Shown: positions 11,152 through 54,915 of the stretch, one piece after another
Layout of the letters: every line of letters begins with the position of its first letter
How positions within the stretch are numbered: the first letter of the stretch is position 1
Source: Candidatus Altimarinota bacterium
GTDB lineage: Bacteria; Patescibacteriota; Gracilibacteria; CAIRYL01; GCA-016699755
Assembly (NCBI GenBank): GCA_963664295.1
Contig: OY760935.1
Location: 608,001 to 672,000 of the forward strand
DNA: 64,000 nucleotides
Direction: 5' to 3'
Notes under the pieces: generated by a model
Database searches by the model: none
What the model saw: only the letters and a program-made list of their open reading frames with translations
Told to the model about the DNA's origin: nothing
Translations under genes and position numbers: made by a program

Positions 11152-11623
11152 TGTCATTCTGAGCGGAGTGAAATGGAGCGAAGAATCTCCTTGTTTATTC
11201 TTTCAAAACCTGCCTTATCTTGTCATTGCGGAATTGATCCGCAATCTCCTTTACCATACGCTCAAAAACTAATTCGGTTATTACAATAGTAATGACTACG
11301 GGAGATCCTTCGTTTCACTCGGGATGACTGTTTTATTTGTCATTCTAAACAAACTATTTTTGTCATTCTGAGCGGAGTGAAGTAGAGCGAAGAATCTCCT
11401 TAAAACATATACTCAAACCTTGCCTTAGGTGTTCCTCTGCTGTCATTCTGAGCGAAGCGAAGAATCTCCTTGGACATGTGCCCAAAAACTAGCTTGGCTA
11501 TTACAGCAGTAATGACTACGGGAGATTCCTCGACTCGCCTAAAGGCTCGCTCGGAATGACAAAAAAGAAGATCAGGATGACAATCATTGTAAATGAAAAC
11601 ACTAAGCGATCCGCCTAGGCGGA
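11152..11623. repeat. Composite TGTC-tagged palindromic (REP/REPIN-like) array 1
   Basis: Multiple TGTCATTCTGAGCG...GAAGAATCTCC and TGTCATTGCGGA-ATTGA-TCCGCAATCT arms, with inverted GGAGAT...ATGAC arms. Confidence 0.9.
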
Positions 11624-11655
11624 CAATGCGTAACTTATTTTTATTTAAAAATACA

Positions 11656-11689
11656 AAAAATCACCCCAGTACTTACTAGAGTGATTTTT
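11656..11689 (-). terminator. Probable terminator after rplL
   Basis: Imperfect hairpin AAAAAATCAC-cccagtacttactaga-GTGATTTTT just downstream of the rplL stop. Confidence 0.55.
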
Positions 11690-11708
11690 AGCTCTTAAAA
11701 TAATAAAA

Positions 11709-12119
11709 CTATTTTAGTTCAACAGTAGCACCAGCTTCTTCAAGCTTGCCTTTTATTTCTTCTGCTTCTTCTTTTTTAACACCTTCTTTAAGAGGTTTTG
11801 GAGCACCATCAACTAAATCTTTAGCTTCTTTCAAGCCAAGACCAGTGATTTCACGTACAACTTTGATAACGTTGATTTTTTGACCACCAGCAGCAGCAAG
11901 AACAACATCAAAACTGTCTTTTTCTTCTGCAGCACCAGCATCACCAGCAGGAGCGCCAACAGCAGCTACAGCAACAGGAGCAGCAGCAGAAACGCCAAAC
12001 TTGTCTTCCATTACTTTAACAAGGTTAGCAAGTTCCAATACAGATAGTTTTTCAACTGCATCAAGAATGCTTTGTGCTTCTTTTGAAAGCTCTGGTAAGT
12101 CTTTTTTTTCTTCTGACAT
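11709..12119 (-). CDS. rplL: 50S ribosomal protein L7/L12
   Basis: [41 protein letters not shown]. Confidence 0.99.
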
Positions 12120-12196
12120 GATTTTATTAAAAAATTGAAAATCTTTATATTGTTTTCATGCTTCGCAAAGCTCCACATGATAAAAAGTTAACTAAA

Positions 12197-12730
12197 TTAA
12201 GCGGTTTGTTCTTTTTGTTTAGAAATTTCTGACAAAGCACGAACAAAACCGGAAACAACTCCGTTAGTTGTGCCAACAAAACCGGAAATTGGTGAATTGA
12301 TAGAGCCAAGTAATTTTGCCAAAAGCTCTTCGCGAGAAGGAACAGAGGCAAGAGCAATAATATATTCAGCATCTACTGGTTTTCCTTCAAAAACTCCTCC
12401 ATGAATAACAAGTTTTTCATTGTCTTTTGTATATTTATGAGTGACTTGAATGCTTGATAACTCGTCTTCAAAACCAAAAACTGCACCAATAGGACCTTTC
12501 ATAACAGAATCACCTATTTCTTCAATTCCGTTTTCTGCCAATGCTTTTTTGAATAAAGTTTTTTTAGCAAGACCGTATTCAGCACCTTTTTCGCGCAATT
12601 TTGCACGATAGTCTGTGATTTCTTCTACTGTTAATCCTTTATTTTCTGCAAAAACTATACTTTTTGCATCTTTAAATTTTTCAGTTAGTTTTTTTAGTAT
12701 TTCTTCTTTTTGTTCGCGTGATATTGCCAT
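12197..12730 (-). CDS. rplJ: 50S ribosomal protein L10
   Basis: GLTVEEITDYRAKLR, AKKTL, LASVPSREELLAKLLGSINSP. Confidence 0.97.
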   Translation of the reverse strand: MAISREQKEEILKKLTEKFKDAKSIVFAENKGLTVEEITDYRAKLREKGAEYGLAKKTLFKKALAENGIEEIGDSVMKGPIGAVFGFEDELSSIQVTHKYTKDNEKLVIHGGVFEGKPVDAEYIIALASVPSREELLAKLLGSINSPISGFVGTTNGVVSGFVRALSEISKQKEQTA

Positions 12731-12754
12731 TTTGATTTAAAAAAAATCTTGAAG

Positions 12755-12838
12755 CATAGAGACATCAAGAAAAGCAAGTTAATAAAACGATTTTTGCTTG
12801 TCTCGGCAGGGCTTATTTGTTTGCCTGCTGTCTCTGAC
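12755..12838 (-). promoter_or_regulatory. L10 leader (autogenous control RNA)
   Basis: Minus strand GAGACAGCAGGC...TAAGCCCTGCCGAG...GTCTCT upstream of rplJ, matching the general shape of the L10-leader 23S mimic (Rfam L10_leader). Confidence 0.75.
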
Positions 12839-12917
12839 CAACTCATTTTCGCAAAAGATTTTAAAATAGTCAAGAATTTTCTTTGAAATTGCAAACTTCT
12901 CATGAGAAAATGAATTC

Positions 12918-13592
12918 ATGATTGAATTTATTGGAGCAAAAAAAACTTTTGTATTAGGCAATGAAGAATGGAGCTTGGGTCCTTTGGATGTTAAAATAAA
13001 AAAAGAGGAAAGAGTAGCTATTATAGGCTCTTCTGGTTCTGGAAAATCAACCTTACTTCATCTAACAGGAGCTTTGACAAAACTTGATGCAGGTCAAATT
13101 AAAATTTTTGGCAAAAATCTAAGCACAATGCACGGCTCAGAAATGCGCAAATTCCGCAATGAGCAAATTGGTTTTATTTTTCAAGATTTTTTTCTTTTTC
13201 CAGAATTTAGCCTTATTGAAAATGTAGAAATGCCAATGTTAGTGGCAAATATCAAGAAAAAAACAGCACAAGAAAAAGCCAAAAAAATACTAGAAGAAGT
13301 TGGTCTATCACACAGATTAAATCATCATCCAGCAGAGCTTTCCGGCGGACAAAGGCAAAGAGGAGCAATAGCCAGAGCACTAGTTATGGAACCAGATATT
13401 TTACTAGCAGATGAGCCAACTGGCAATCTAGACAAAGACAATAGCCAAAAAATAATCAAATTAATTTCTGAATTACAAAAAAAACGCAAGATGACACTTT
13501 TGCTTGCCACACATGATGATAATGTAGCAGAAATTTGCTCCCGCAAAATTATTTTAGATAATGGACAAGTTTCTAATGATCAAATTTTATAA
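12918..13592 (+). CDS. ABC transporter ATP-binding protein (LolD/MacB-like)
   Basis: Walker A GSSGSGKST, signature LSGGQRQR, LLADEPTGNLD, H-loop ATHD. Confidence 0.93.
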   Translation: MIEFIGAKKTFVLGNEEWSLGPLDVKIKKEERVAIIGSSGSGKSTLLHLTGALTKLDAGQIKIFGKNLSTMHGSEMRKFRNEQIGFIFQDFFLFPEFSLIENVEMPMLVANIKKKTAQEKAKKILEEVGLSHRLNHHPAELSGGQRQRGAIARALVMEPDILLADEPTGNLDKDNSQKIIKLISELQKKRKMTLLLATHDDNVAEICSRKIILDNGQVSNDQIL

Positions 13593-13606
13593 TTTTATTT
13601 TAAAAA

Positions 13607-14341: not shown

Positions 14342-14368
14342 AATTTTTTATTGCTTAAATAAGCTATA

Positions 14369-14470
14369 TGTCATTGCCCGATTTGATCCACCACGGCGGA
14401 CTTACAATCGGACAATCCATTTGCCATCTAAATTTTCTGCTGGATTATCGGATCAAGCCCGATAATGACA
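14369..14470. repeat. Empty inverted doublet of TGTC-tagged palindromes (REPIN-like)
   Basis: Left arm TGTCATTGCCCGATTTGA[TCCACCACGGCGGAC insert]...TCGGACAATCC; right arm CTGGATTATCGGATCAAGCCCGATAATGACA (14440-14470). Confidence 0.8.
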
Positions 14471-14511
14471 ATAATGAATTATTAACCTTGTTATTAGCGA
14501 GTTTCTTTTTT

Positions 14512-14891
14512 TGTCATTGCCCGACTTGATCGGGCAATCCAGAAACTAAAAAATTATAACAAATCATTATATAAATCATTCCACTGAGGATTAATTTTTT
14601 CAATTAATTCAATTTTCCACTTACGACTCCATTTTTTAAGCTTTTTTTCATAAATAATTGCTGAATTAATATCATTAGTTTTCTTGTAATATACAAGCTT
14701 ATGAACATTATATTTACTAGTAAATCCATTAATTAAATTATTTTTGTGCTCATAAATTCTTTTTATTAAATTATTAGTAACTCCTGTATACAAAGTTCCA
14801 TTGCGACCACTTGCCAATATGTAAACATAATAATCTTTCATTGGTTTTATTTTTATCGTTCTGGATTATCGGATCAAGCCCGATAATGACA
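14512..14891. mobile_element. Putative REP-bounded GIY-YIG element
   Basis: Arms 14512-14542 (TGTCATTGCCCGACTTGATCGGGCAATCCAG) and 14861-14891 (inverted) tightly bracket the nuclease ORF. Mobility is inferred, not shown. Confidence 0.55.
14554..14841 (-). CDS. Small stand-alone GIY-YIG nuclease (COG2827-like)
   Basis: YYVYILAS..GTLYTGVTNNLIKRIYEH, FTSKY, AIIYEKKLKKWSRKWKIELIEKINPQW; more AT-rich than its neighbours. Confidence 0.93.
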   Translation of the reverse strand: MKDYYVYILASGRNGTLYTGVTNNLIKRIYEHKNNLINGFTSKYNVHKLVYYKKTNDINSAIIYEKKLKKWSRKWKIELIEKINPQWNDLYNDLL

Positions 14892-14992
14892 AAATAATCA
14901 AAAGTGTGCTAACGAATAACAATGAACAATGATAAATTTTATTCGAAAACTTTAAAAATACGCAAAACATACATAAAATATGTACATAATAA

Positions 14993-15027
14993 ACATAAAA
15001 AGTGTACATTTTGTACACTTTTTATGT
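14993..15027. repeat. Perfect 16-bp inverted repeat (lysA terminator or operator upstream of the nuclease)
   Basis: ACATAAAAAGTGTACA-ttt-TGTACACTTTTTATGT. Confidence 0.7.
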
Positions 15028-15049
15028 AAATTTTGCGCAAAACAACAAT

Positions 15050-21083: not shown

Positions 21084-21087
21084 ATTA

Positions 21088-21681
21088 TTATGAATTAAAG
21101 CCGTCTATTTCTACTGACAACATTACAAGTTGTTCAAATTCCTCCTTAGTTGTACCTAATTCTTCATAGGTCACAAAACCACTTTCAAACCAAATTTTTA
21201 CTGATTTCATAGTATCCATCGTCATAACTTTACCTTCTTTAAGACTTTTTATAACAACTTGAAGTGATTTATAAATCATTTCTTCAATCCAAATCTCAAC
21301 CTGATTAATATCAAACTGAATATTAATATTGTCAATAACACCATAGCTACGCAAAAGCCTTAAGCAATATCTTTCAAGAGCCTGTACCTCAACATTAAGA
21401 CCACTAGAATCCAACATTCTTATTGCTTCTAGCATCAAAACAGCATCTGACGCACAAAATACAAAAGTTTCCTCTGCAGAAAGCATGCCTAATAAATTTT
21501 CTGAACCATTTAAAAATAAATTATTAATTTTTTCACTTGCTTCAATTTTTTGTCGCCTTTTAAGAATTCTTGTGAGTGCTTCTGCTAACAATTTCGCTTC
21601 TTTTTGTATCGGCTCATGCAATTTACTATCTAGCGATTCTGGTTCACTACCTTGCCCTAATTTTTCTAAATTTTTTACCAT
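21088..21681 (-). CDS. Hypothetical protein, tandem paralog
   Basis: Body similar to 20460..21083; C-terminal tail nearly identical to that of 21688..22653. Confidence 0.75.
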   Translation of the reverse strand: MVKNLEKLGQGSEPESLDSKLHEPIQKEAKLLAEALTRILKRRQKIEASEKINNLFLNGSENLLGMLSAEETFVFCASDAVLMLEAIRMLDSSGLNVEVQALERYCLRLLRSYGVIDNINIQFDINQVEIWIEEMIYKSLQVVIKSLKEGKVMTMDTMKSVKIWFESGFVTYEELGTTKEEFEQLVMLSVEIDGFNS

Positions 21682-21687
21682 AAATTA

Positions 21688-22653
21688 TTAAGAATTAAAA
21701 CTATCAGTTCCTGCTGACAACATTACAAGTTGCCCAAACTCCTCCTCAGTTGTGCCTAATTCTTCATAGGTAGTGTAGCCAAGATCAAGTAAGGTTTTTA
21801 TCTGTTCAAGCACATAATCAGGAACAACATCCTTATTTTGCATGATTTTGATTGCTGTTTTTGCAAGAGCAATTTCCAGATCACCTTCTCCTGCTAATTC
21901 TGCTAATTCATCTCTAGTTATAGAAGATAAATTTTCCAGCCCAAAAACTCCTCTTTGCACTCCCTCCAAACAAAACTGAACAGTTGCATCAATTTGATCA
22001 CTGTATTTATTAGGATCTAAGTCCTTAACTTTTGATAATGCGTAATTTGCAACCATAGCAAAAATTTTTTCAACAATTGGACTAAAAATATCAACATTAT
22101 CAGTATTATAATTAAACCCATTACGCAAAATAGCTACTATATCTTCTCCATTAAGGGACATCTGAATATCTTGCTCCACGCAACTTATAGCCTGCATCAT
22201 AATACCTTCAACATTACTCATAGCATATGCTTGTTTTTCAACAGTTGTATTAACAGCTTTTTGCAATCGAAATTTAAGCTCAACAAGGTTGCCATATCCC
22301 AAATCATGTACCTCAAGATTATGCTGTGCTATCAACTGATTAATGCTATCCATAAGATTAAGAGCGGCTTCCAGGTTGCCATTTGCAACATACAACTCTA
22401 TTTCTTTCATGCTAGCTACAATTATTTGTATTGCTTCTGCTCGTTCTGTGTTATCGGATGATTGCTCAAAATCATCATCTTCTTCAAAAAACTCATCATC
22501 TCCAAGCAAATTATCAACCTCATCTGCAATATCACTTGCAACTTCTTCGGCAATCTTTGTTGTATCAAGTTCTGTTTCTGTGCCGGAACTTTCAGGATTT
22601 ATACCTTCTGTTTCATCTTTAAATTCCAAACCTTTTCTTGTTTTATCAGTCAT
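21688..22653 (-). CDS. Acidic helical hypothetical protein
   Basis: 321-aa ORF ending in TYEELGTTEEEFGQLVMLSAGTDSFNS, shared with its neighbour. Confidence 0.75.
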   Translation of the reverse strand: MTDKTRKGLEFKDETEGINPESSGTETELDTTKIAEEVASDIADEVDNLLGDDEFFEEDDDFEQSSDNTERAEAIQIIVASMKEIELYVANGNLEAALNLMDSINQLIAQHNLEVHDLGYGNLVELKFRLQKAVNTTVEKQAYAMSNVEGIMMQAISCVEQDIQMSLNGEDIVAILRNGFNYNTDNVDIFSPIVEKIFAMVANYALSKVKDLDPNKYSDQIDATVQFCLEGVQRGVFGLENLSSITRDELAELAGEGDLEIALAKTAIKIMQNKDVVPDYVLEQIKTLLDLGYTTYEELGTTEEEFGQLVMLSAGTDSFNS

Positions 22654-22660
22654 TATTTTA

Positions 22661-39982: not shown

Positions 39983-42900
39983 TTAGTATTCTGACAGTTT
40001 ACTTCCTAATTTTTCCTTTACCTCTTGTTGGTCCCTGAGAGTATTATTTAATGATAAACGGTTCAAGTTGCCTTTAGATAATTTTTCTGCGACTTCTGAA
40101 CTTATGGAAGTAAGTCCGTATAAATGCAAATGACCCAAGTTGCCTTTAGCTAATTTTTCTGCGACTTCTGGAGTTATGGAAGTAAGTCCTTTTAAATACA
40201 AATAATTAAAGTTGCCATTAGCTAATTTTTCTGCGACATCTGGAGTTATGGAAGTAAGTCTGTCTAAAGACAAAAAAGTCAAGTTGTTATTAGCTAATTT
40301 TTCTGCGACTTCTGGAGTTATGGAAGTAAGTCCGTCTAAATGCAAAGAAGCCGAATTGTTATTAGCTAATTTTTCTGCGACTTCTGGAGTTATGGAAGTA
40401 AGTCCGTCTAAAAACAAAGAAGTCAAGTTGTTATTAGCTAATTTTTCTGCGACTTCTGGAGTTATGGAAGTAAGTCCGTCTAAATACAAACGACCCAAGT
40501 TGCCATTAGCTAATTTTTCTGCGACATCTGGAGTTATGGAAGTAAGTCCGTTTAAATACAAATAATTAAAGTTGCCATTAGCTAATTTTTCTGCGACATC
40601 TGGAGTTATGGAAGTAAGTCCGTCTAAAGACAAAAAAGTCAAGTTGTTATTAGCTAATTTTTCTGCAACTTCTGGAGTTATTGAAGTAAGTCTGTTTAAA
40701 TGCAAAGAAGTCAAGTTGTTATTAGCTAATTTTTCTGCAACTTCTGGAGCTATGGAAGTCAGTCCGCTTAAATGCAAAGAAGTCAAGTTGTTATTAGCTA
40801 ATTTTTCTGCAACTTCTGGAGTTATTGAAGTAAGTCCGTTTAAATACAAAGAAGTCGAATTGCCATTAGCTAATTTTTCTGCAACTTCTGGAGTTATGGA
40901 AGTAAGTCTGTTTAAATACAAATAATTCAAGTTGCCTTTAGCTAATTTTTCTGCAACTTCTGGAGTTATTGAAGTAAGTCCGTTTAAATACAAAGAAGTC
41001 GAATTGCCATTAGCTAATTTTTCTGCAACTTCTGGAGTTAGGCTTTTTAAAGCTTGAATATCACTATATGAAAAATTACCCTCTAATATTTTTTGATATA
41101 ATTGTAATTGTTCTTGTTCATCTTCACTAGAAGCTTCTTCTGCTTCCGCAGGCATTTCATCTCCTATATCATCAAGTAAATCATCTATTGCTTCATTTTC
41201 TGTATCTGATAATCCTGTTAAAACATCACCTACTTCTTCTTCCGTGATCTCAGCATCTTCTTCTAGGCCTAGTTCTAAATCCTCTTCGTTTGCGCTTTCT
41301 GGTGCATCATCAATTTGCGATGCATCAATCACCTCTTCAGAAGCAGAATCATCAACCTCTGACCATTCTGCATCTACCACCTCATCAGAAGGGCTTGTTT
41401 GTAATGATGACTGCTGTTGCTGTGAATCTGCCTCTTCTTGAGCTGGTTCTGAACCTAATTCAGAACCTAAGCCTAGATCGTCAGCATCTTCTTCTGCCAT
41501 TGCCTGTATATCTAGCTCTGCTTTTTTTTCGTTTGCGCTTTCTGGTGCATCATCAATTTGCGGTGCATCAATCACCTCTTCAGAAGCAGAATCATCAACC
41601 TCTGACCATTCTGCATCTACCACCTCATCAGAAGGGCTTGTTTGTAATGATGACTGCTGTTGCTGTGAATCTGCCTCTTCTTGAGCTGGTTCTGAACCTA
41701 ATTCAGAACCTAAGCCTAGATCGTCAGCATCTTCTTCTGATTCTTGTTCTGCTACTTCTGCTTCTGTTTCTAGGTCTAAACCTAGATCGTCAGTGTCTTG
41801 TTCTGATTCTTGTTCTGCTACTTCTGCTTCTGTTTCTAGGTCTAAGCCTAGATCGTCAGCATCTTCTTCTGATTCTTGTTCTGCTACTTCTGCTTTTTTG
41901 TTGATCACAGCAGTCTCTGTTGCATTATCTAGGCCTATTATTTCACCTTCAAATTTAGCCAAAGCTAAAATAGCTGCATCATCACTTACTGATAAGCCTG
42001 AAAACATTATTGATCCAACTGTAGATTGTGCCAACTCTTTTATTGCGTTAGGAGTTATGACTTGAAGGTCATTCAAAATTAAAACATATCCATTATACTT
42101 TGCTAGTTCTTTTGCTTCTTCAGACTCTAATTTAGCCAAGCCCTCAATTTTCAAAGTGTAACCATTAAAACTTGCTAGCGCAATAGCTATCTCAGGACTC
42201 AATTGATTAAAACAATTTACAAAACAAAGTTCACTTACAACAGCCTTGCATAACTCCTTCATTACAAGTGGGCTAATATGTGTAAGACTTTTAAACTGAA
42301 GTCGATTTTTTATAAAACCTCCTAATATTTTTGCTTCATCAAGTTCTAACCTACGAAGTTTATCAAAATCAATATTTCTAAAACCTGAGAATTTAATCTT
42401 GTGAGCAATATCTACAGTAAGCTCTTCTATGTTTTCTATGTCATCTTTATTAAAATCACCGCTTAATATTCTTTGCTTTATTTGTTCTTGTTCATCTAAA
42501 CTTTCATTTGCTTCTTGATCTACACTATTCAGCAAGTTATCTAAATTATCTTGACTTAATGCTCCCTCTTCATCGAGTTCTCTCGACGCTCCTATATCTG
42601 TATCTAAGTCTAAGCTTGGTGCTAGTTCTTGTGGGCTTGGTTCTGACTCTGGGGCAGACTGTGGCTGTGACTGTGGCTGTGGTTCTGGCTCTGGGGCAGA
42701 CTGTGGCTGTTGCTGTGGTTCTGGCTCTGAGGCAGACTGTGGCTGTTGCTGTGGTTCTGGCTCTGGGGCAGACTGTGGCTGTTGCTGTGGTTCTGATCTT
42801 GTTGCATTAGCTCTTCTTTGATTTGATACATCCTCTACTTCTACAAAATTAGCCACTTCTTCAAAAAATCCAAGTGTTTTCTTTGGCAAATCTCCACCAG

Positions 42901-45412
42901 GATCATTATCCTTCCCTCTTCCAAACTGAAACCATTCACCCAAAGTCTCTATTATTGGACCTAAAACTTTTCCCGTTCCAGATGCAATATATTTAGCGCC
43001 AATATTAATTGGGCTAATACCTTTTTTCAAGCTTTTGTCTACTTTCTTTATTTTCTCTGCAATTTTATTATTAATATTAGCTGCATAAGGATTACCTTGT
43101 TTTTTGCTAAAAGGATAATGTTTGTCAATAGCAGCTCTTCTAGTTTTTTCTCCAATTTTTTCCAATAATTCAACTCTCTTGCCCTCTGCTTCTTCTCCAT
43201 AAATTTTTTCCAAAATATCATCAAGATTATCAGCATTAACTTGCTCTTTAAATTTCTCAAATACAGCTTTTTTGCCATAATGCTCAATTTTTTTTCTTTT
43301 CGCAATTGGCAATTCATTAACCATTCCCTCAAGATTGGTTAAAATCGTATCTTCTTCAAGACCTAATGCGTCTTGCATTATTGTTAAAATACTTTCTGAG
43401 TCTAATTTTTTAAACTCAACTTTGGACGGAATATCCATTTCTTCTGGTTTAACCGGCTTGCCATCGCTCGTTTTGCCAGCATAAAAAAGTTTCTTAAAAT
43501 TAAGTTCATTGTTGCCTAAATTGCTTATAGCAATTTGATACAATAATTCTTTTATTTCTGGTAAATCCAAGCTTTCTTTCAGTAGCGCAAGCGCATAAAA
43601 ATGCTCCTTGTAATCAATTGCTTCGCTCAATTTAGATAATTTTTCAGGAGTTTCAAAAATATCTTCCATTAAATTGCTCATAAAAGCATCACCACTTATA
43701 AGTTCTTTGCTGATTTTTTTATCATTCATCCAAAAAGGCTTCCCATTCGGTTGCCTTGCTTCAAACTTGCTATAGTCTTGTCTACCTACTCCTTCTGCTT
43801 CCAAGTCATCAGCAGCTTCCATAAGCATCACAAACGCCTCTGATTTTGTATAATTTCTTCTCCAAAGCTTAGTAATATTTACAAAATCTGCCACCTCATA
43901 AGCTCCTCGACCAAAATTAGCGAAAATACTATCTCTAGAATTTTCAATTATATTATCAATAGCGCCTGTGCCACTAAAAACCTCTTTGTCGCTTTTTACA
44001 GAGGTAATATTTCTTACAAGAGAATTTAAAACACCCTTTCTAAGATCATCCCTGGTTCCTGTTCTTAAATCACCAAAATACGAAGCATTACGACCTTGTA
44101 CTCCTATTTTTTTAAGCATATTTGGTAAATTTCCATTACCAACACCTGGCAAATTTCTAGTCAAGTGATTTACTGCCATTTTTCTGTCTTCCTCGTCTTC
44201 GTTACTAAGAGAAGCTCTAACTATCCAGTCAATAATCACATCTAATCTTCTTTGGATTTCTATTGGTGGATATTTTTCTAAATTATTTCTGGTTCTATTT
44301 ACTGCTTCTTGTTGTTGCAGATTTGTTTCTTCTTCGTCCCCTTGTGATAATCTCTCTTTTTTTGATGTTAATTTTTCTATTGTTTCAGCTTTGTCAGCAT
44401 TTGCAAGACCGAGCTCATTTGGAAACAGTTTTTTAATTTCTGCTTTTTCTTGATCACTAAATTTTTTAGAAGCAAGTATGCGAACTGCATCATTTCCCTC
44501 AAAACTCGCTAACTTATCTGTTAATTTTGTAAGCTTATTTGCTTCTTTTAATTTTTCTTTAATTTGCTTTTTGTCACCTTTTACTTGCGGAATACTTCCA
44601 AATCTTTCAGTTTCAAACAAAGTATCTAATTCTTTTTTATTAAAAAAACTATTATTTGTAGAACCTCTTCTGTGTGCACCTCTTAATGCATTTGTTGTTG
44701 CAAAAACACCAGCAAATGCCCATGGTCCTAGAGCATAAGCAGGAAGCGCTGCCACAACAGCACCAAGAGCCAAACCTCCCACAGCAGTTGTTATAGCGTT
44801 ATCAGCTGCTATCTTCCAAGGCTCTTTAATCTTTGCTTGACGATATCCTTCATAAGAATTATATACAAGCGGTGTTGCCATAAGCACAGACTTACTAAAA
44901 ACAACAGAACCAAGACCTTTGAAAAAAGCAGCAAAAGCTGACATACCCTCTTTGCTTGCTTCATTGATTACATCTTGCACCCCTGTTTCACCTAATGTTT
45001 CCTGAAGATATTGTTCCATTTCTGGAGGTAATTCAAACTCATCAGCTTGCTCTTGAGCCAAGGCCGAAGAAGACAAAGCAGTTGCTGTTGTCACTGTTGC
45101 CAGTCCAGTTGCACCTCCATATTTAATAACCTTGCTAATTTTTTGCGCCAAACTAGTTTCTTCTGGTTCCAAAACTGGATTTTTATTTTTATCATCACCC
45201 AATACATCAGCCATTTTTTCCCTATTATCAGCCATAGGAGTCACAACTCCCTCAGCTAAAGTAAAAGTTTTTTCAAGCTCTGCTTTTGTAATTTGCCCTG
45301 CTTGTTCTATTTGTTCTGGTGTCAGATTTTTTGCATCCAACCCAGCTCCCTCTTGAGCTTCTTGTAAAGGATCTGCTGTATTTTTGCCATCACTTCTGTT
45401 TATTGATGTCAT
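39983..45412 (-). CDS. Giant mosaic protein: N-terminal hydrophobic segments, helical core, P/Q/E linkers, two LRR domains
   Basis: Uninterrupted 1809-aa ORF with C-terminal 24-aa LRR repeats (LxxLxLxGLTSITPEVAEKLA). Confidence 0.85.
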   Translation of the reverse strand: MTSINRSDGKNTADPLQEAQEGAGLDAKNLTPEQIEQAGQITKAELEKTFTLAEGVVTPMADNREKMADVLGDDKNKNPVLEPEETSLAQKISKVIKYGGATGLATVTTATALSSSALAQEQADEFELPPEMEQYLQETLGETGVQDVINEASKEGMSAFAAFFKGLGSVVFSKSVLMATPLVYNSYEGYRQAKIKEPWKIAADNAITTAVGGLALGAVVAALPAYALGPWAFAGVFATTNALRGAHRRGSTNNSFFNKKELDTLFETERFGSIPQVKGDKKQIKEKLKEANKLTKLTDKLASFEGNDAVRILASKKFSDQEKAEIKKLFPNELGLANADKAETIEKLTSKKERLSQGDEEETNLQQQEAVNRTRNNLEKYPPIEIQRRLDVIIDWIVRASLSNEDEEDRKMAVNHLTRNLPGVGNGNLPNMLKKIGVQGRNASYFGDLRTGTRDDLRKGVLNSLVRNITSVKSDKEVFSGTGAIDNIIENSRDSIFANFGRGAYEVADFVNITKLWRRNYTKSEAFVMLMEAADDLEAEGVGRQDYSKFEARQPNGKPFWMNDKKISKELISGDAFMSNLMEDIFETPEKLSKLSEAIDYKEHFYALALLKESLDLPEIKELLYQIAISNLGNNELNFKKLFYAGKTSDGKPVKPEEMDIPSKVEFKKLDSESILTIMQDALGLEEDTILTNLEGMVNELPIAKRKKIEHYGKKAVFEKFKEQVNADNLDDILEKIYGEEAEGKRVELLEKIGEKTRRAAIDKHYPFSKKQGNPYAANINNKIAEKIKKVDKSLKKGISPINIGAKYIASGTGKVLGPIIETLGEWFQFGRGKDNDPGGDLPKKTLGFFEEVANFVEVEDVSNQRRANATRSEPQQQPQSAPEPEPQQQPQSASEPEPQQQPQSAPEPEPQPQSQPQSAPESEPSPQELAPSLDLDTDIGASRELDEEGALSQDNLDNLLNSVDQEANESLDEQEQIKQRILSGDFNKDDIENIEELTVDIAHKIKFSGFRNIDFDKLRRLELDEAKILGGFIKNRLQFKSLTHISPLVMKELCKAVVSELCFVNCFNQLSPEIAIALASFNGYTLKIEGLAKLESEEAKELAKYNGYVLILNDLQVITPNAIKELAQSTVGSIMFSGLSVSDDAAILALAKFEGEIIGLDNATETAVINKKAEVAEQESEEDADDLGLDLETEAEVAEQESEQDTDDLGLDLETEAEVAEQESEEDADDLGLGSELGSEPAQEEADSQQQQSSLQTSPSDEVVDAEWSEVDDSASEEVIDAPQIDDAPESANEKKAELDIQAMAEEDADDLGLGSELGSEPAQEEADSQQQQSSLQTSPSDEVVDAEWSEVDDSASEEVIDASQIDDAPESANEEDLELGLEEDAEITEEEVGDVLTGLSDTENEAIDDLLDDIGDEMPAEAEEASSEDEQEQLQLYQKILEGNFSYSDIQALKSLTPEVAEKLANGNSTSLYLNGLTSITPEVAEKLAKGNLNYLYLNRLTSITPEVAEKLANGNSTSLYLNGLTSITPEVAEKLANNNLTSLHLSGLTSIAPEVAEKLANNNLTSLHLNRLTSITPEVAEKLANNNLTFLSLDGLTSITPDVAEKLANGNFNYLYLNGLTSITPDVAEKLANGNLGRLYLDGLTSITPEVAEKLANNNLTSLFLDGLTSITPEVAEKLANNNSASLHLDGLTSITPEVAEKLANNNLTFLSLDRLTSITPDVAEKLANGNFNYLYLKGLTSITPEVAEKLAKGNLGHLHLYGLTSISSEVAEKLSKGNLNRLSLNNTLRDQQEVKEKLGSKLSEY
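40040..41038 (-). repeat. 72-bp coding tandem repeat, 13 full + 1 degenerate LRR units
   Basis: Framework GCTAATTTTTCTGC(A/G)AC(T/A)TCTGGAG recurs every 72 bp. Confidence 0.97.
41285..41896 (-). repeat. Acidic linker repeats: ~212-bp near-perfect duplication (41285-41496 / 41528-41739) plus three 66-bp units
   Basis: DADDLGLGSELGSEPAQEEADSQQQQ...APESANE occurs twice; AEVAEQESE(E/Q)D(A/T)DDLGL occurs three times. Confidence 0.92.
42636..42797 (-). repeat. 36-bp coding tandem repeat (QQQPQSAPEPEP x4-5)
   Basis: GGCAGACTGTGGCTGTTGCTGTGGTTCTGGCTCTG recurs. Confidence 0.92.
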
Positions 45413-45465: not shown

Positions 45466-48400
45466 TTACCTCGAGAGAATATTGGCAAGCACGAATTCTA
45501 ACCAATTTTTCATGCCACTTTTTGTGTATTGACCGCCCACACCTTGAGATGGATTTTGCAATATAAGATTTTTAAATATTACTTTAAATTTTTCTGAATT
45601 ATCCTGCATCAATATTTGTCCTTTCTTCGGATCAACAGATTTAAATGATTTACCCTGAACTAAATTTGCATGGGCTTTTTTGAAAACCTCATCTCCCAAT
45701 TTATCAACCATTTCCACTGTCCATGGAATTTTTTTGTTTCCATTTTTTTCTAAAGACTTTTGAATTTGATCAAAACTGATTATTACTTCTGGCAATCTTG
45801 ATCCTTTTTTAATATTAAAATCATTCAATTTAGCACCTTCGAGCAATGTATTTCCATCTTTAAAAAATTTATCAACATTATCACCAACAAATGGAATAAG
45901 GGAACCAGTATCACCAGCAAAAGAATTTAGCCTTTGAAAAAGATCAACACCTTTTCTTTCCCCAGCAGTAAGTTTATCAGCCCCATAGTCAAGCAACTTG
46001 TCCACACCAAGAAGATTAACCAAAAACAATCTACATATTTCACCTTGTGTAATAGAATCTTTTGCAAGATCAGTATCTTCTCCAACTGCTTTTCGAATCT
46101 CTGTAATCAAAGTATTAAAACTCTTCGCAGTAGAGCTATTTGCAGTAGTAGGATCAAAAAGATATTCCAATGCCAAATCCAAATCACCTGGACGAACAAA
46201 TCCATAAGCCTCTTGCACTTGTTTATGAATTCCTGCATCTTTTACCGCTTGTTTTAGGGCATCTGCGCTACTAATTGTCACCTCTTTTTCAGGATTCTTC
46301 ATGCTACTCAACATATTGACATAGCCCCCAACCACATTGAATGAAAAATGCCTAAGCAAAGTCAATGCTTCTGGCAATTTTTCTGCACTAAATTCCAAAG
46401 CCCAACCAGCAGTCTCAAAAGGCAACTTAGCTGTTTTAAGAATAAGCCCGTCTGTTCCAGGCGTACCCATAAGCAATCTATAGGTCTTGCTTCCTTGTGC
46501 TATTTCTATGTATTCTTTTCCTTTTTCTATTCCTGTATCAACTATGTTCCAGCCCTTGTTTGCCATATCTTTCACAAATGGTATTGCATCTTCTTTGAAA
46601 AATTTTTTCAAAAGAGCAATAACCACAGGCAATTTTTCTTTTCCACTTCTAGCAACATCTTTAAGATAAGGCACTGCTGTAGCCCAAGCTTCGCCAAATT
46701 TTTGTGTGACAAAATCGGTAATATCTCTGTTTTTCTCAAGACTACGATTAAAGTCTTGTTTGTCAATTGCTAATGCCAACAAATTACCAAAAGTAACCTT
46801 TTCTTTTGCCTTTCTGTTAAACAAATTACTATTGCTCATCATTTTTTCTGCTACTTTTATACCCTCTTCAACACTAGGTTTTTTGTATTTTGACCTCTCC
46901 ATAGAAAGATCTTTAAAATACAACTCCAAAAGACCAAGAGAAATCATAGCAAGATCAGCCTGCTTACTTTCTGTTGTTGAGCCTGGCAAATCTTCAATAA
47001 AAATCTTCAATTCATCAGGCATGCCATTCATTATAACCTCACCCGCATTATCCACTTGAATTTCTGATGCTCTTGTTTTTTTATGCCAATCCAAAAGCTT
47101 GTGCATTTCAATATCATTCATTGCCTTCATCAATCTTGGACTTTGTTTTGATTCCAATGCTTTCTGTTGCCATGCTGTTGGATTTAGTTCTTCTTTTTTC
47201 CAATCAAGTTTATCTAGATAAATCTGAAAAATTGCTCCTTCTTGTCCTTTTTCCTCACTAAACAAGCCAATTTCCTCAAAAATATCATAGCCATTATATT
47301 CTTTAATAAACTCACGCAACAAAACTCCACCAAAAATATACTTACCATATTCTCCTAATTTACCACCACCAAAAGCAACTTTGTAAATTCCATACAAAAT
47401 TCCAACTGCAGTAGTCATTTTCAATGGGTCGCCAGAAGTCACCATATCCATCCAAGTATCAAAACCTCTTTCCATAAAATCCGGATCCAATCCGCTTTGT
47501 TCTGCATTATAATAATCAGAAAGAGTTTTTTGATAATTATCCATTCTGCTTAATAATTCACCCTGCAAAAGCTTCAAAAGCTCAGTATTTTCAATCAAAG
47601 CACCACTAGCCTGGCTTGTATTTTTTGCTTCTGGGTTAATTTTTCTTTGCATTACATCATTATGCATAACCAAAAACTTCTCTAGCATACTTGAGTTCAC
47701 CTCCTCTTCATTAAACTTTCCTTTTTCATCAAACCATAAATGAGGATCAATAATGTTTGCCTGACCATTGCCCTCCTGCCCAAAATAAAGACGGATAAAT
47801 TTTTCTCTTGTTGCGCGCAAATCCACTCCTGTTTTTTTCTCAAAAGCCTCTAGTTGCAAATTTCTTAATCTTTCTGTTAATTTTTTTGTTTCAATTTTCT
47901 TAAACTTTGCCAAAGCTTCACTTAATCCCGCTAAGCCAGAGCTAGTAGGCTCACTACTGCTAAGGCCTTTTGCAACTTGACTATATAACAAGTTTGAATT
48001 AGTGTTTAAACTTGTAATCATATTGCCAAGCTCAACATAGCCATAAAAACAAGCAAACAACAAAAACTCCTTCACTTTTGGATCAGCAGGCTCTGGAATA
48101 CCTGAATCCAGCCATAATTTTCTTTCAATATCATCAAATCTCTTCCTTAACTCTTTGCGCTCAAGTGCTTTTTCAAAAATATTCCAATAGCTACCACCCT
48201 TATCAAGAGGTTTTGACTCTGGAGATCTTCCTTGAAATGTCTTTTGCCATTTTAGATTTTCTTTGAGCCCATCTATTTCTTCTTTTAGTTGATCAACTTC
48301 TCTTTTGTCGAGTTCATATTCAAGAACTGATTTTAAATACTCCTTTCTTAATTTATCCAATTGAGTTGCATCAGGTGATGTCTTATTTTTTTCTTTATTA

Positions 48401-49713
48401 TAAGCGTCTTTTGCTTTTGCCATTTCTTGTCCTTTTGCTTTTAGTTGAGCTTCTTTTGGACTTAATTCTTCTTCTTTTTCCTGAATTTGAGTTTCTAATG
48501 TAGAGATATCCACTAGGTCAAAAATAGGATTAGAATGATAAGCTTCCAGTCTCCCATAAAATTCATCCTCTTTTTTAATTATTTCTTGAGCCAATGCTTT
48601 ATTTGGATTTGCTCTATATTTTCTTCGCAAGGTTCTTAGGTCAATTTCTTGTTGGCTTAATCTAGCATTTACCAAAGCAAAATTGTTGTCCTCCGAAACA
48701 CGATCCTCACACAATCCATCAAAAAGACGCATATCACACTGCATCATTCTTCTTTTGTATCTCTCCGCCACATCAGCATTGGTTTCTTTGGCACTAGGGT
48801 ACACAATAGCAATAAAACTACCTGAGTCTATTTTTCTCGCTTTTTCACCAGCTGGCAAAGAGGCATAATATTCATAAATTGCTTTATTAACAAGCATTCT
48901 TACCTCCCATTCTCGTAGCTTAGATAGTTTTCTTTTTTCTTTCTTTAGCCTTTCCTCTAAGCCACTCTTCTCTGTTCCACTTGCAGTTGAAACTTGCTCT
49001 TTTAATTTTTCCACCTCTATTTGCTTCAAAATAACAGCTCCAAGTACATTTTTTGCTGCCAAAACAGCAGCTTGATATTCTCTTTGTAATCTTTCTAGCT
49101 CTTTTTGCTTACTCACATTTTCTCTAGCTTTTGATAATAATCTATCTAATTTTTCTTTAATTGCTATTAATTCTTTTTTAGTTTTTTCTATGTTTTCATT
49201 TTTTATTAAATCAGGGAGCACTAAGTTTACTTTTTCGTATATATTTAACAAAAATGAAGATATCAGATTTGTCTTATTACTAAGATTAAACTTTACATCT
49301 GTATTGCTATCCAACAATTTATTAATGATGTTTAATTCTGCTTGCGTAAACCCAAAATCTTGAAAACTTGCCTTTTCTTGTGCAAGTTCAAGTTTTAATT
49401 TTGTAATCTCTTCTTCTTTTCCGCTTGCTTTCAAGTTAAAATATTCTTTTATTTGCTCATTTTCTTCCACCATGCTCTCATCCCAAACAGTAATCTTACC
49501 AGCAAGTTGCAAATATTCATCCGGATCACTATTTCTAATGTCATCAAGACTTTCTAAAAACCCATCAAAAATTTCATTACTATCAAATCTTTCTGCACCA
49601 AAACTAGGTCTTTCAGGTGTTCCCAAAAAAACTGGCAAATTGCACAAAAAAAACTTTTTCAACTTGTTATTTTCAGGTTTCTGCCAATGAAAATTACTAT
49701 TTTCAAATTTCAA
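45466..49713 (-). CDS. Giant coiled-coil hypothetical protein with a central hydrophobic hairpin (TTG start)
   Basis: 1415-aa ORF with E/K-rich heptads and a TM-like stretch TTAVGILYGIYKVAFGGG...IFGGVLL. Confidence 0.8.
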   Translation of the reverse strand: MKFENSNFHWQKPENNKLKKFFLCNLPVFLGTPERPSFGAERFDSNEIFDGFLESLDDIRNSDPDEYLQLAGKITVWDESMVEENEQIKEYFNLKASGKEEEITKLKLELAQEKASFQDFGFTQAELNIINKLLDSNTDVKFNLSNKTNLISSFLLNIYEKVNLVLPDLIKNENIEKTKKELIAIKEKLDRLLSKARENVSKQKELERLQREYQAAVLAAKNVLGAVILKQIEVEKLKEQVSTASGTEKSGLEERLKKEKRKLSKLREWEVRMLVNKAIYEYYASLPAGEKARKIDSGSFIAIVYPSAKETNADVAERYKRRMMQCDMRLFDGLCEDRVSEDNNFALVNARLSQQEIDLRTLRRKYRANPNKALAQEIIKKEDEFYGRLEAYHSNPIFDLVDISTLETQIQEKEEELSPKEAQLKAKGQEMAKAKDAYNKEKNKTSPDATQLDKLRKEYLKSVLEYELDKREVDQLKEEIDGLKENLKWQKTFQGRSPESKPLDKGGSYWNIFEKALERKELRKRFDDIERKLWLDSGIPEPADPKVKEFLLFACFYGYVELGNMITSLNTNSNLLYSQVAKGLSSSEPTSSGLAGLSEALAKFKKIETKKLTERLRNLQLEAFEKKTGVDLRATREKFIRLYFGQEGNGQANIIDPHLWFDEKGKFNEEEVNSSMLEKFLVMHNDVMQRKINPEAKNTSQASGALIENTELLKLLQGELLSRMDNYQKTLSDYYNAEQSGLDPDFMERGFDTWMDMVTSGDPLKMTTAVGILYGIYKVAFGGGKLGEYGKYIFGGVLLREFIKEYNGYDIFEEIGLFSEEKGQEGAIFQIYLDKLDWKKEELNPTAWQQKALESKQSPRLMKAMNDIEMHKLLDWHKKTRASEIQVDNAGEVIMNGMPDELKIFIEDLPGSTTESKQADLAMISLGLLELYFKDLSMERSKYKKPSVEEGIKVAEKMMSNSNLFNRKAKEKVTFGNLLALAIDKQDFNRSLEKNRDITDFVTQKFGEAWATAVPYLKDVARSGKEKLPVVIALLKKFFKEDAIPFVKDMANKGWNIVDTGIEKGKEYIEIAQGSKTYRLLMGTPGTDGLILKTAKLPFETAGWALEFSAEKLPEALTLLRHFSFNVVGGYVNMLSSMKNPEKEVTISSADALKQAVKDAGIHKQVQEAYGFVRPGDLDLALEYLFDPTTANSSTAKSFNTLITEIRKAVGEDTDLAKDSITQGEICRLFLVNLLGVDKLLDYGADKLTAGERKGVDLFQRLNSFAGDTGSLIPFVGDNVDKFFKDGNTLLEGAKLNDFNIKKGSRLPEVIISFDQIQKSLEKNGNKKIPWTVEMVDKLGDEVFKKAHANLVQGKSFKSVDPKKGQILMQDNSEKFKVIFKNLILQNPSQGVGGQYTKSGMKNWLEFVLANILSR

Positions 49714-49837
49714 GTTTTTATTTTTATTTCAGAAAATCATATTATTATCTCATAAATAAGCCTTTTTTTCAAGAAAAACCTCCTTGACGAAGCAAGGGAA
49801 AAACATAAACAAAAAACAGCCTATTTTTGTCTTATCT

Positions 49838-50614
49838 CGTCATTGCGAATCTAAAAAAAAGGATCGTCATTGTGGGCTTTTTGGGTTGTCATTGTGGACT
49901 TTTTGGATTGTCATTGCGGACTTTTTGGGGTGTCATTGCGAGGAACCTGCCTCTTTTTTTGTCATTATCGGACTTGATCCGATAATCCAGAGAATCATGT
50001 CATTGCGGACTTGATCCGCAATCTCCTTGTCCATGTGCCCAACTCCTATCTTGTCATTGCGGGCTGTTTAGGGTGGTGTCATTGCGGACTTGATCCGCAA
50101 TCTCGGGAGGCAGGAGGTCTCATTGTGAACATAAAACACACCCTTACTGTCATTCTGAGCGGAATGAAATGGAGCGAAGAATCTCCTTGTCCATGCGCTC
50201 AAGTCCTGCCTTAGGTAATTCAACAGTAATGACAACGGGAGATCCTTCGCTTCGCCTAAAGGCTCGCTCAGGATGACATACTATTTCTGTCATTCTGAGC
50301 GAAAAACACTCCCTTTTTGTCATTCTGAGCGGAATGAAATGGAGCGAAGAATCTCCTTGTCCATGCGCTCAAAATCTATCTTGTCATTGCGGACTTTTTG
50401 GGGTGTCATTGCGAGGAACCTGCCTCTTTTTTTGTCATTATCGGACTTGATCCGATAATCCAGAGAATCATGTCATTGCGGACTTGATCCGCAATCTCCT
50501 TGTCCATGCGCTCAAGTCCTGCCTTAGGTAATTCAACAGTAATGACAACGGGAGATCCTTCGCTTCGCCTAAAGGCTCGCTCAGGATGACAGAGTAAAGG
50601 GGCTCAGAATGACA
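49838..50614. repeat. Composite TGTC-tagged palindromic array 3 (largest)
   Basis: More than 15 GTCATT/ATGAC arms of several stem variants; internal direct duplications 49909-50035=50382-50508 and 50180-50278=50493-50591. Confidence 0.95.
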
Positions 50615-50696
50615 AAAAAGAACTTAAAACAAAAAAATAAAAACAATTAAAAAAAATTCATTGCCCTATATAAAGCCAAATAATCAACATTAAAAA

Positions 50697-50732
50697 TGTA
50701 TTACTGTATTAGTGTACCGGTACAGTAATACA
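50697..50732. terminator. 12-bp inverted repeat downstream of the DHH gene
   Basis: TGTATTACTGTA...TACAGTAATACA. Confidence 0.45.
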
Positions 50733-50741
50733 AAAATAAAA

Positions 50742-52328: not shown

Positions 52329-52378
52329 TTTTCGGTTAAAATATTTTTGAACTAAGTGTTCATTATATTTTACAATCA

Positions 52379-54436
52379 ATGAGAAGATTTGTCAAGAGCA
52401 ATATTTTTATTGCTTCCGGCGCATTATTATTAGGTTTTTGCTTCATCACTCTCTGGATTTATCTTTTAATTCCAATAAACAAAGAACTAATTGAGCCAAA
52501 TGAAAGTATAATAATTTTTGATCAAAATAAGCAAAAATTATATGAAATTTTGCAAAAAAACCAAGAAAAAAGCCAATATATAGAATATGAACAAATTTCT
52601 TCTTATTTTATTAAAGCAATTGTTGCTACAGAAGATAAAAGATTTTATAAACACAATGGAGTGGATTATTTAGGTGTCTCACGAGCAATAAAAGACAATA
52701 TTTTAATTGGCAGAGTTGTTTCCGGCGCATCTACAATAAGCCAACAATTGGCCAGAAATATTTTAAAAAACAAAAATCGTGGATTAAAAACAAAAATCGA
52801 AGAAACTCTTTTTGCTATGCGACTAGAAAAACAATTTTCAAAAGAAAAAATCCTGGAATTATATGCTAATAAAGTTTCTTTTGGTGGAGTATTGATTGGA
52901 ATAGAGAGTGCAAGTTGGGCTATTTTTGATAAACCCGCTTCTAATCTTGACCTTGCTGAGGCAAGTTTTTTAGCTGGTATCCCTAAATCCCCTACTAAAT
53001 ATTCTCCTTTTGACAACTTCAAAGAAACAAAAAAAAGGCAGGAGTTTGTTCTAAAAAGAATGTTAGAAGAAAACTTAATCAATCAAGTTCAATATAATGA
53101 TGCAATAAACGAAGAATTAAAAATCAACAAAGAACAAAATCCAATTAAAACACCTCATTTTGTTTTTTATTTACTAAACGAAAAACAAGAAGAGTTTGAG
53201 AAAGCAAAAAAAGAAAATAATAAAATTTACACAACTATTAACGCTGGCCTACAAGAGCAAGTGGAAGACATAATAAATAGCCACCTAGAGCTTATTGGCA
53301 AACAACATAACATTAGCAATTCTGCTGTTTTGGTTTTTGAAGCAAAAACTGGAAAAATTCTCGTAATGGCAGGAAGTAAAGATTATTTTGATGATAATAT
53401 AGATGGCAATGTTAATGTTTTATTGGCAAAAAGACAGGTTGGCTCAACATTAAAACCATTTTTATATTTATTAGCTTTTATGGAGCTTGGCTGGAATGAA
53501 AAAACCACTATTCTTGATGAACCTGTGGCTTTTGAGACCAGCGTTGCTTTGCCATGGGAACCAAAAAATTATGATCTTGATTATCGCGGTGAAGTGAGTG
53601 TCCGTGAGGCATTAGCTCAAAGCTTAAACATACCTGCAACAAAAACATTAAATGAAGTTGGTACAAATAAGTTTCTAGTTTTTCTACAAAAATTAGGAAT
53701 GTTTACTGTTAATAAAAATGAGGACTATGGCTTATCTGTTGCTTTAGGCACTCCAGATATTAGACCAATTGACTTAGCCTATGCTTATGGACTTTTGGCG
53801 CGCGAAGGAAAAAACTTTGAATTTCAAGTAATCGAGAATGAAAATATTTTTCAGGGTGAGCAAATTTTGCCCAAAAATAAGGTCTTGGAAATCACAGATA
53901 TATTAAGTGACAATCAGGCAAGAATTGATGCTTTTGGTGAAAATTCTGTTCTAGATTTTGATTATTCTGTTGCTGTAAAAACCGGCACAACTCGTAATTT
54001 TCGAGATAATTACTGTATTGGATATACTTCTGAAGTAGTGGTTTTAGTTTGGGTTGGTAATTCTGATGGTTCTAATATGCGCAATGTTTCTGGTATTACT
54101 GGCGCTGGCCCTTTGTTTCACAAAATTATGAACTTAGTTATGGAAAATTATGAAAAGAAAAATTTTCCTGAATTTCAAGAAAATGAAAATGAAACAAGTA
54201 TCAATAATAATTTAAGAATTCTTAGTCCATTAAATGGCTCTATTTATCAAATATCTGACCAAGAATTAGAGAATCAAAAAATAAAACTGGAAGCAAATGA
54301 AAAATGTAATTGGTATGTTAATAATAAAAAAATTGGCACAGGTAAAAAATTGCTTTGGCTACCAAAAAAAGGCACTTGGGACATCAAAGCAAAAAATGGC
54401 ACAAATGAAACTAGTATAAGAATTTATGTAATGTAA
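52379..54436 (+). CDS. Bifunctional transglycosylase/transpeptidase, PBP1C-like
   Basis: TM anchor; EDKRFYKH, GASTISQQLA; SxxK (STLK), SLN, KTGT; C-terminal BiPBP-like domain (ILSPLNG...WYVN). Confidence 0.9.
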   Translation: MRRFVKSNIFIASGALLLGFCFITLWIYLLIPINKELIEPNESIIIFDQNKQKLYEILQKNQEKSQYIEYEQISSYFIKAIVATEDKRFYKHNGVDYLGVSRAIKDNILIGRVVSGASTISQQLARNILKNKNRGLKTKIEETLFAMRLEKQFSKEKILELYANKVSFGGVLIGIESASWAIFDKPASNLDLAEASFLAGIPKSPTKYSPFDNFKETKKRQEFVLKRMLEENLINQVQYNDAINEELKINKEQNPIKTPHFVFYLLNEKQEEFEKAKKENNKIYTTINAGLQEQVEDIINSHLELIGKQHNISNSAVLVFEAKTGKILVMAGSKDYFDDNIDGNVNVLLAKRQVGSTLKPFLYLLAFMELGWNEKTTILDEPVAFETSVALPWEPKNYDLDYRGEVSVREALAQSLNIPATKTLNEVGTNKFLVFLQKLGMFTVNKNEDYGLSVALGTPDIRPIDLAYAYGLLAREGKNFEFQVIENENIFQGEQILPKNKVLEITDILSDNQARIDAFGENSVLDFDYSVAVKTGTTRNFRDNYCIGYTSEVVVLVWVGNSDGSNMRNVSGITGAGPLFHKIMNLVMENYEKKNFPEFQENENETSINNNLRILSPLNGSIYQISDQELENQKIKLEANEKCNWYVNNKKIGTGKKLLWLPKKGTWDIKAKNGTNETSIRIYVM

Positions 54437-54463
54437 AATATCACCTTTTTGTTGCTATTGTTT

Positions 54464-54915
54464 TTTTGAGGGTGTCATTGTGGGCTTTTTGAGGGTGTCA
54501 TTGCGGACTTTTTGAGGATGTCATTACGGACTTTTTGAGGATGTCATTACGGACTTGATCCACAATCTCGGCAGGTGTCATTCTGAGCGCAAAACACACC
54601 CTTGCTGTCATTCTGAGCGAAATGAAATGGAGCGAAGAATCTCCTTGTCCATTTGCTCAAGTCCTGCCTTAGGTAATTCAATAGTAATGACTACAGGAGA
54701 TCCTGAATCGAGTTCAGGATGACATACTATTTTTGTCATTCTGAGCGTAATGAAATGGAGCGAAGAATCTCCTTGTCCATTTGCTCAAGTCCTGCCTTAG
54801 GTAATTCAACAGTAATGACACAGGAGATCCTTCGCTTCGCCTAAAGGCTCGCTCAGGATGACAGAAAAAGTAAGAGAGAGGGAGAATGACAGAAGAAAGG
54901 GGCTCAAGATAACAG
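54464..54915. repeat. Composite TGTC-tagged palindromic array 4
   Basis: Four 23-bp tandem half-arms (TTTTTGAGG(G/A)TGTCATT(G/A)(T/C)GG(G/A)C), then two REPIN-like doublets and trailing ATGAC remnants. Confidence 0.93.

Follow-up and report, generated by a model that had tools for sequence, protein, structure and literature searches.

A family of hairpin repeats with a four-letter tag was characterized in a stretch of 64,000 nucleotides from Candidatus Altimarinota bacterium (Patescibacteriota, Gracilibacteria; assembly GCA_963664295.1, contig OY760935.1, positions 608,001 to 672,000 of the forward strand), referred to below as the window, and in the source chromosome, a single contig of 1,215,430 bases with 33.5 % G+C that is rated 100 % complete. 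By their sequence, the repeat arms are identified as CGTC/TGTC-tagged repetitive extragenic palindrome (REP) hairpins, variants resembling the SRM repeats, and the protein encoded between two of them as an Ssn nuclease. Most of the arms are parts of one asymmetric, non-coding two-arm element, and the clusters of this element follow the replichores of the chromosome in their orientation. The REP arms are probably recognized by Ssn, and the two-arm element has probably spread by strand-specific nicking at replication forks and subsequent repair.

Tagged hairpin arms

A first-pass annotation of the window had listed six arms, at 14512 (+), 49960 (+), 14891 (−), 49998 (+), 54724 (−) and 11441 (+), and all six were found letter for letter. 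They are confined to four intergenic places (11152-11582, 14369-14891, 49838-50614 and 54473-54915). The window contains 23 tagged hairpins, where 100 shuffles gave 1.4 on average and never more than 5; the genome contains 194, compared to a mean of 24 in 20 shuffles. A census of the genome yielded 166 tagged starts in 34 clusters, 27 of the 166 being half-arms joined to the next arm; another 90 hits, mostly due to chance, were set aside as unclassified. None of the 166 arms lies inside an open reading frame (ORF) of 150 amino acids or more. An Rfam search of the window returned nothing but one tRNA.

The full arms fall into four discrete types, A (47 copies), B (11), C (15) and D (66). Stems are 8 bp long in types A and C and 9 bp in type B. 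The short D arm spans 27 nt, like A and C, and carries a G-A/A-G step at pairs 6-7, while longer D arms have inserts at the tip. The tag is TGTC in 159 of the 166 arms and CGTC in 4, and the 3' tail is CTC in 148, with CCA in all 11 B arms. An AT-starting stem of 8-9 bp with a loop of 4-5 nt describes types A, B and C, a minority of which have 6-nt loops; type D arms fit the stem definition in register only. The loop had been described as fixed, but CTTGA (45 copies) is found next to CTCGA (6), CTACGA (6), TTTAA (4) and long inserts. The arm at 11441, earlier drawn as a 5-bp stem with an 11-nt loop, was found to have the 27-nt register of the 8-bp arms, with G-A/A-G at pairs 6/7.

It had also been proposed that the stems co-vary. 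Pairing is indeed kept, but the changes occur mostly between the few discrete arm types. For the covariation test arms were chosen by tag, first two bases and tail, leaving the inner pairs 3-8 unused for selection. In the window 44 of 48 cells were paired (arm-swap control: mean 29.9, maximum 42). In the genome this was 243 of 390 (control: mean 175.5, maximum 201), for 65 distinct sequences with chance hits among them. A set of 42 distinct arms of 27 nt, taken from the window and from other genomes, showed pairing in 93.5 % of the cells and two-sided changes in 6 of 8 pairs, and the covariation score was reached by none of 500 shuffles; the underlying alignment (43 rows, from 66 candidates plus five window arms) leans towards structure, as complement-strand and unpaired hits were dropped. 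A weak test, comparing distinct G.T and A.C defects on the tagged strand, gave 14 versus 5 for A arms and 1 versus 1 for C arms.

An asymmetric two-arm element

In 36 dimers the arms face each other with their tags outward across spacers of one family, 32 of which are 59 bp long and the others 57-60 bp. The left arm is of type A or D-left and the right arm of type C or D-right, and all four combinations are present (D-D 16, A-C 7, A-D 7, D-C 6). In 34 of the 36 dimers an ATT-starting arm stands opposite an ATC-starting arm. Such pairing avoids a perfect long palindrome, and the same was seen by eye for 13 of 13 dimers in another genome, G469. Tandem half-arms of 22, 29 or 30 bp stand before full arms, and stretches of up to 145 bp recur between arrays at 97 % identity. 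Furthermore, a chimeric arm at 391.9 kb of the genome combines the 5' half of type B with the 3' half of type A, which points to recombination between arm types. The common spacer family, the interchangeable arms, the half-arm tandems and the chimera indicate that the arm types are modules of one recombining element and not unrelated families, an outcome that the first-pass annotation had kept in view. No target-site duplication was evident by eye at the array ends.

Three arrays in the window illustrate this organization. The first (11152-11582, plus strand) is located between two minus-strand genes. It harbours three D-left arms (11152, 11361, 11441), one A arm (11221), one half-arm (11338) and 59-bp spacers; the right arms, at about 11303-11329 and 11523-11561, lie on the minus strand. 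The second (49838-50614, plus strand) is a mosaic in which the plus strand carries tandem half-arms and arms of types B, A and D-left and the minus strand carries D-right arms, with spacers of 59 bp. The third (54473-54915, plus strand), also a mosaic, lies between convergent genes and combines half-arms, A arms and D-left arms on the plus strand with two minus-strand arms, one of type C (54698-54724) and one D-right.

The ssn gene

The first-pass annotation overlooked a nuclease gene lying between its own examples at 14512 and 14891. This gene, ssn (14554-14841, minus strand), encodes a single-domain GIY-YIG nuclease of 95 amino acids in which PF01541 (E 5.7e-15) is the sole domain found. It shares 57 % identity over 90 amino acids, without gaps, with the orthologue of Neisseria gonorrhoeae (pairwise E 1e-37), where the homology cut-off of Chenal et al. 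(Nat Commun 2025; PMC11893778) is E < 1e-10; the comparator here is the gonococcal orthologue, while the published SsnA is meningococcal. The gonococcal orthologue sits among 10 NTS matches. Residues Y7, Y18 and E65 of the resident Ssn align gap-free with the catalytic Y6, Y17 and E64 of SsnA. Searches of NCBIfam and of phage sequences with the nuclease gave no match, and a PDB search just a weak match to UPF0213.

The gene is bracketed by two B-type arms with their tags outward: at the left end of the cassette an arm with a 9-bp stem, CTTGA loop and CCA tail (14512-14540, plus strand), and at the right end an arm with one G.T pair (14863-14891, minus strand). Next to this cassette two further B-type arms, with their tags outward and a spacer of 23 bp between them, form a dimer without a gene (14369-14470). 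Its arm types and their order are those of the cassette; the loop of its plus arm (14369-14418) contains an inserted CCACC-AC-GGCGG mini-hairpin. Among 68 related ssn loci, tags-outward tagged hairpins were found on both sides in 34, upstream in 44 and downstream in 37, compared to 2 of 124 control segments. Every arm type seen in the source genome also flanks ssn genes in other bacteria among these loci.

In six relatives of the same family no ssn gene was found beside dapB, the contigs of three of these ending within about 210 bp, and the D-arm pattern is absent from five genomes of the same family. A broader arm pattern is present in 195 of 401 genomes of the phylum and is most frequent in the source genome (121 hits). 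The expansion of the repeats is thus lineage-specific.

Mini-hairpins of the form CCGCC-N-GGCGG occur at 12 places in the genome (including 11611 and 14388 of the window), 5 of them within loops of tagged arms. At 482700-483400 of the genome two identical, small GIY-YIG genes of a different class, 35 % identical to Ssn, stand in tandem. In front of each stands a 5' fragment of the neighbouring tRNA gene (anticodon TGG by eye, Pro), the intact tRNA following, and in these fragments the anticodon arm is swapped for a CCGCC-TTA-GGCGG mini-hairpin. Mini-hairpin and nuclease are possibly a second nuclease-repeat pair, targeting hairpin loops.

Relation to known repeat systems

The CGTC superfamily of REPs, which includes dRS3 of Neisseria and RPE-4/6 of Rickettsia, was described without a transposase having been found (Di Nocera 2013; PMC3733652). 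The arms studied here resemble it in the TGTC tag, the AT-starting stems of 8-9 bp, the mostly 5-nt loops and short tail, and in the tags-outward dimers with a conserved spacer and no linked transposase. They differ in that the tail is mostly CTC instead of CCA, in the bulged stems and long loops of the D arms, and in that clusters are usual, whereas clusters are reported as rare in that superfamily except in Neisseria and Wolbachia (PMC3733652). In the comparison with published REP families, which had been suggested earlier, the CGTC type thus fits in its TGTC variant; the GTAG tag and Y1 transposase of RAYT/REPIN systems are not present.

Chenal et al. (2025) showed that SsnA binds and cuts its hairpin exclusively in single-stranded DNA, and there just on the strand bearing the tag; RNA and double-stranded DNA are neither bound nor cut. 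Binding depends chiefly on the C that directly follows the palindrome, cleavage on the three bases that precede the palindrome. From a 20-nt product of a 75-nt substrate, the cut is deduced to lie about 4 nt ahead of the tag. Altering the stem while keeping the hairpin abolished activity. SsnA reduces integration of transforming DNA bearing the repeats, and cleavage of single-stranded DNA near the cognate hairpin is reported for four Ssn proteins other than the resident one (PMC11893778). The system described here agrees with Ssn/NTS/SRM in the single-domain GIY-YIG protein of ~95 amino acids, the gene bracketed by oriented hairpins, the GTC tag with a C after the stem, and the many dispersed, clustered copies. 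It is unlike it in having four arm types, one with a tandem G-A/A-G step, and in that most copies do not match the flanks of the resident gene. Moreover, the main text of that paper mentions neither lagging strand, replichore nor replication fork (PMC11893778).

It is therefore likely, by analogy with SsnA, that the arms are recognized as single-stranded DNA by Ssn-family GIY-YIG nucleases such as the resident one. This bears on the idea of the first-pass annotation that a protein reads a hairpin plus an unpaired tag in single-stranded DNA or RNA. Recognition on a single strand is probably correct, as the positions critical for SsnA are the letters seen to be fixed; DNA can be retained as the target, but RNA cannot, since it is neither bound nor cut by SsnA (PMC11893778). 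The further claim, that structure rather than sequence is selected, is contradicted by the loss of SsnA activity on stem change with the hairpin kept (PMC11893778), and by the variation being among four discrete types.

The organization also recalls RAYT/REPIN/BIME and IS200/IS605 systems, in which one nuclease gene is accompanied by many non-coding two-hairpin derivatives and mosaic arrays (PMC3333891, PMC3116915, PMC3971601). The enzyme here, however, is of the GIY-YIG type and not an HUH tyrosine transposase, and the tag is TGTC and not GTAG. We know of no strand-joining activity for a GIY-YIG Ssn enzyme. In IS200/IS605 elements orientation is linked to the lagging strand and replication (PMC3333891, PMC3971601), and tandem REP arrays of P. 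fluorescens SBW25 are oppositely oriented on opposite sides of the chromosome (PMC3116915).

Orientation with respect to replication

The asymmetry of the element gives it a direction. Between 143 and 371 kb of the chromosome each of the 14 multi-feature clusters points to the minus strand (in one of them 6 features are minus and 2 are plus), between 411 and 762 kb each of the 16 points to the plus strand, and a dimer at 1036 kb points to the minus strand. Left out of this count were a lone, unrelated arm at 1192 kb, directionless lone B and D arms, the array at 392 kb, which fits, and a lone 12-letter hit at 924 kb without a partner stem, which is contrary to the pattern. The orientation flips just twice round the chromosome, near the terminus and across the origin side. 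An arrangement of 31 clusters on a circle with no more than two switches has p = 4.3e-7, neither origin nor terminus being assumed.

The GC skew has its minimum at 982 kb and its maximum at 330-333 kb. Beside the skew origin, at 983.5-984.4 kb, are four 9-mers resembling DnaA boxes. A dif-like site lies at 332.9 kb, about 40 kb from the antipode of the origin, and the skew is weak in between. An origin near 982 kb and a terminus at 330-333 kb are inferred from these features. The pattern is followed by 30 of 31 clusters if the terminus is placed at 333 kb, and by all 31 if it is placed at the antipode, 375 kb. ATT-type arms are on the leading-strand template in 107 of 112 cases and ATC-type arms on the lagging-strand template in 37 of 39. 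Just 7 of the 31 clusters lie in the origin-proximal half (p = 0.003).

Array orientation is independent of the direction of neighbouring genes. Of 30 multi-feature clusters, 17 are located between convergent and 3 between divergent genes, and two are between tandem genes facing against the fork; these contexts show that transcription does not explain the polarity. The direction of the fork is shared by 582 of 1009 called genes in the genome (58 %). KOPS- and Chi-like motifs were considered as a cause of polarity and rejected, as the element contains neither and is balanced in G and C (174 to 181). Replichore polarity of such repeats was not found in print, most subscription journals being outside the coverage of the search.

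Proposed mechanism and alternative explanations

Replication forks expose the lagging-strand template, and Ssn would act on one strand of single-stranded DNA. Ssn may thus nick an arm exposed on this template, and the nick may be repaired by copying from another array. Such copy-repair would give rise to arm swaps, half-arm tandems, mosaics, chimeras and a fixed orientation to the fork. The polarity suggests that the repeats spread at replication forks. It is highly probable, by analogy with SsnA, that the resident Ssn cuts single-stranded DNA near its own B arms, and it may also trim incoming DNA, which is possible because ComEC and DprA are encoded in the genome; a role in transformation of the Neisseria type is therefore possible. 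Whether nicking at an exposed arm and repair from another array explain the mosaics and the orientation we judge to be evenly balanced. The most far-reaching proposal is more tentative: Ssn might be the missing mobiliser of CGTC REPs, the gene-less element having reached about 30 sites by lagging-strand-specific nicking and copy-repair.

Several observations weigh against these proposals. The half-arm units stop at the loop and not at the published cut position. The exact SRM pattern has no match in the window and one, at chance level, in the genome. Mismatches to it number 2 in B and short D arms, 3 in A, 4 in C and 4-5 in long D arms, the deviation of the B arms consisting of one compensated pair; the pattern recovers just 22 of the 68 related ssn loci. 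The resident Ssn departs from its family at K53 (E in 61 of 71) and Y64 (R in 57 of 71). It also lies outside one weakly supported group that holds most of the C-, D- and A-flanked Ssn proteins in a tree of 82 rows and 96 columns with unsettled bootstrap values. For this reason the main element may belong to a different Ssn, a paralogue since lost, that spread the A/C/D element; a degraded second ssn gene was not found in the genome. A related strain from a second study has the cassette at the identical site, and no empty site was seen where contigs were compared, at two stretches, with joints falling in repeats. The dnaA gene (684377) is about 300 kb from the skew origin, for which reason the origin is inferred only; no switch in orientation occurs at its position.

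Polarity, moreover, is strong in the source genome but unreplicated in three other repeat-rich genomes. It is not seen in G431, a closed genome with clear skew and four ssn genes (ATT 36 versus 33, ATC 19 versus 27), nor among the heterodimers of G358 (8 versus 11, intermixed, in the first 100 of 144 places) or on contig 1 of G469 (4 versus 4). The dimers of G431 lean 8 to 3, by eye, in the same way as in the source genome, which is not significant. Its ATG-starting arms are biased 10 to 1 with respect to the direction of the fork, possibly by chance. An all-plus run in G358 was rejected as a listing artefact, the fuller listing showing no polarity.

The polarity could alternatively have arisen by self-cleavage: the resident Ssn would cut ATT arms (B and A), which survive only on the leading-strand template, and leave ATC arms uncut and tolerated on the lagging-strand template. 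The distribution of ATT arms given above and the restriction of SsnA to the tagged strand of single-stranded DNA (PMC11893778) are in agreement with this, as is the position of 9 of the 11 B arms on the leading-strand template, the 2 exceptions being at the ssn locus itself. However, most B arms are inside composite arrays and thus not independent, and G431, with four close Ssn homologues and dozens of arms, shows no such strand avoidance. Self-cleavage is regarded as unlikely.

Selection for chromosome stability was considered as well. Where arrays reach a length sufficient for RecA, selection would retain just the orientation in which inversions between replichores are symmetric and harmless. 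Arrays are indeed alike over up to 145 bp, selection against intra-replichore inverted repeats is documented (PMC11040001), and the genomes with short repeats showed no polarity. With only 58 % of genes facing with the fork, however, the genome is of the low-bias kind for which a ratio near 1 is reported (PMC11040001), and a second-order effect would hardly yield 30 of 31 clusters; we hold this explanation to be improbable.

Slightly less credible again is that the arms act mainly as RNA hairpins, stabilizing mRNA or terminating transcription. Their intergenic location, the 17 of 30 clusters between convergent genes, their stable RNA folding and the RNA roles proposed for CGTC REPs (Di Nocera 2013; PMC3733652) speak for it, but orientation tracks the replichore and not the neighbouring genes, SsnA ignores RNA (PMC11893778), and GCGAAGC, which forms a stable mini-hairpin in DNA (PMC13037366), is contained in the short D arm. 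A secondary RNA role may nevertheless exist. That the arms are unrelated families or products of a Y1 (RAYT or IS200) transposase is very improbable and already largely refuted: the four stems differ in sequence and IS200/IS605 elements have a like replication-linked orientation, but all left/right combinations share one spacer family, each arm type flanks ssn genes elsewhere, and no PF01797 match is present in the complete genome.

Other features of the window

Two AT-rich, near-perfect palindromes (14976-15027 and 50700-50731) are intergenic and adjoin repeat sites, and are unrelated to the tagged arms. An ORF of 1809 amino acids (39983-45412, minus strand) contains a 72-bp repeat in 13 copies and low-complexity repeats rich in Q, P, E and S; no Pfam family scored above its cut-off for this ORF, and a neighbouring ORF of 1415 amino acids (45466-49713) had no Pfam match. 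At about 21084-21800 two adjacent ORFs have a 117-nt stretch in common at 77 % identity, 600 bp apart.

Implications

The repeat family and its nuclease were already known; the variant arms and the replichore polarity are additions to this. As to how CGTC REPs multiply, Di Nocera (2013) found no transposase and Chenal et al. (2025) raised mobility as a hypothesis only. The near-perfect polarity of an asymmetric element is an in-genome sign of a process, or of selection on a process, that acts on one strand at the replication fork. The arm types, including the one with a G-A/A-G stem, may serve as natural substrate variants for a nuclease family of biotechnological interest. If Ssn is indeed the mobiliser of these repeats, the system would represent a GIY-YIG-driven, transposase-free counterpart of IS200/RAYT mobility.

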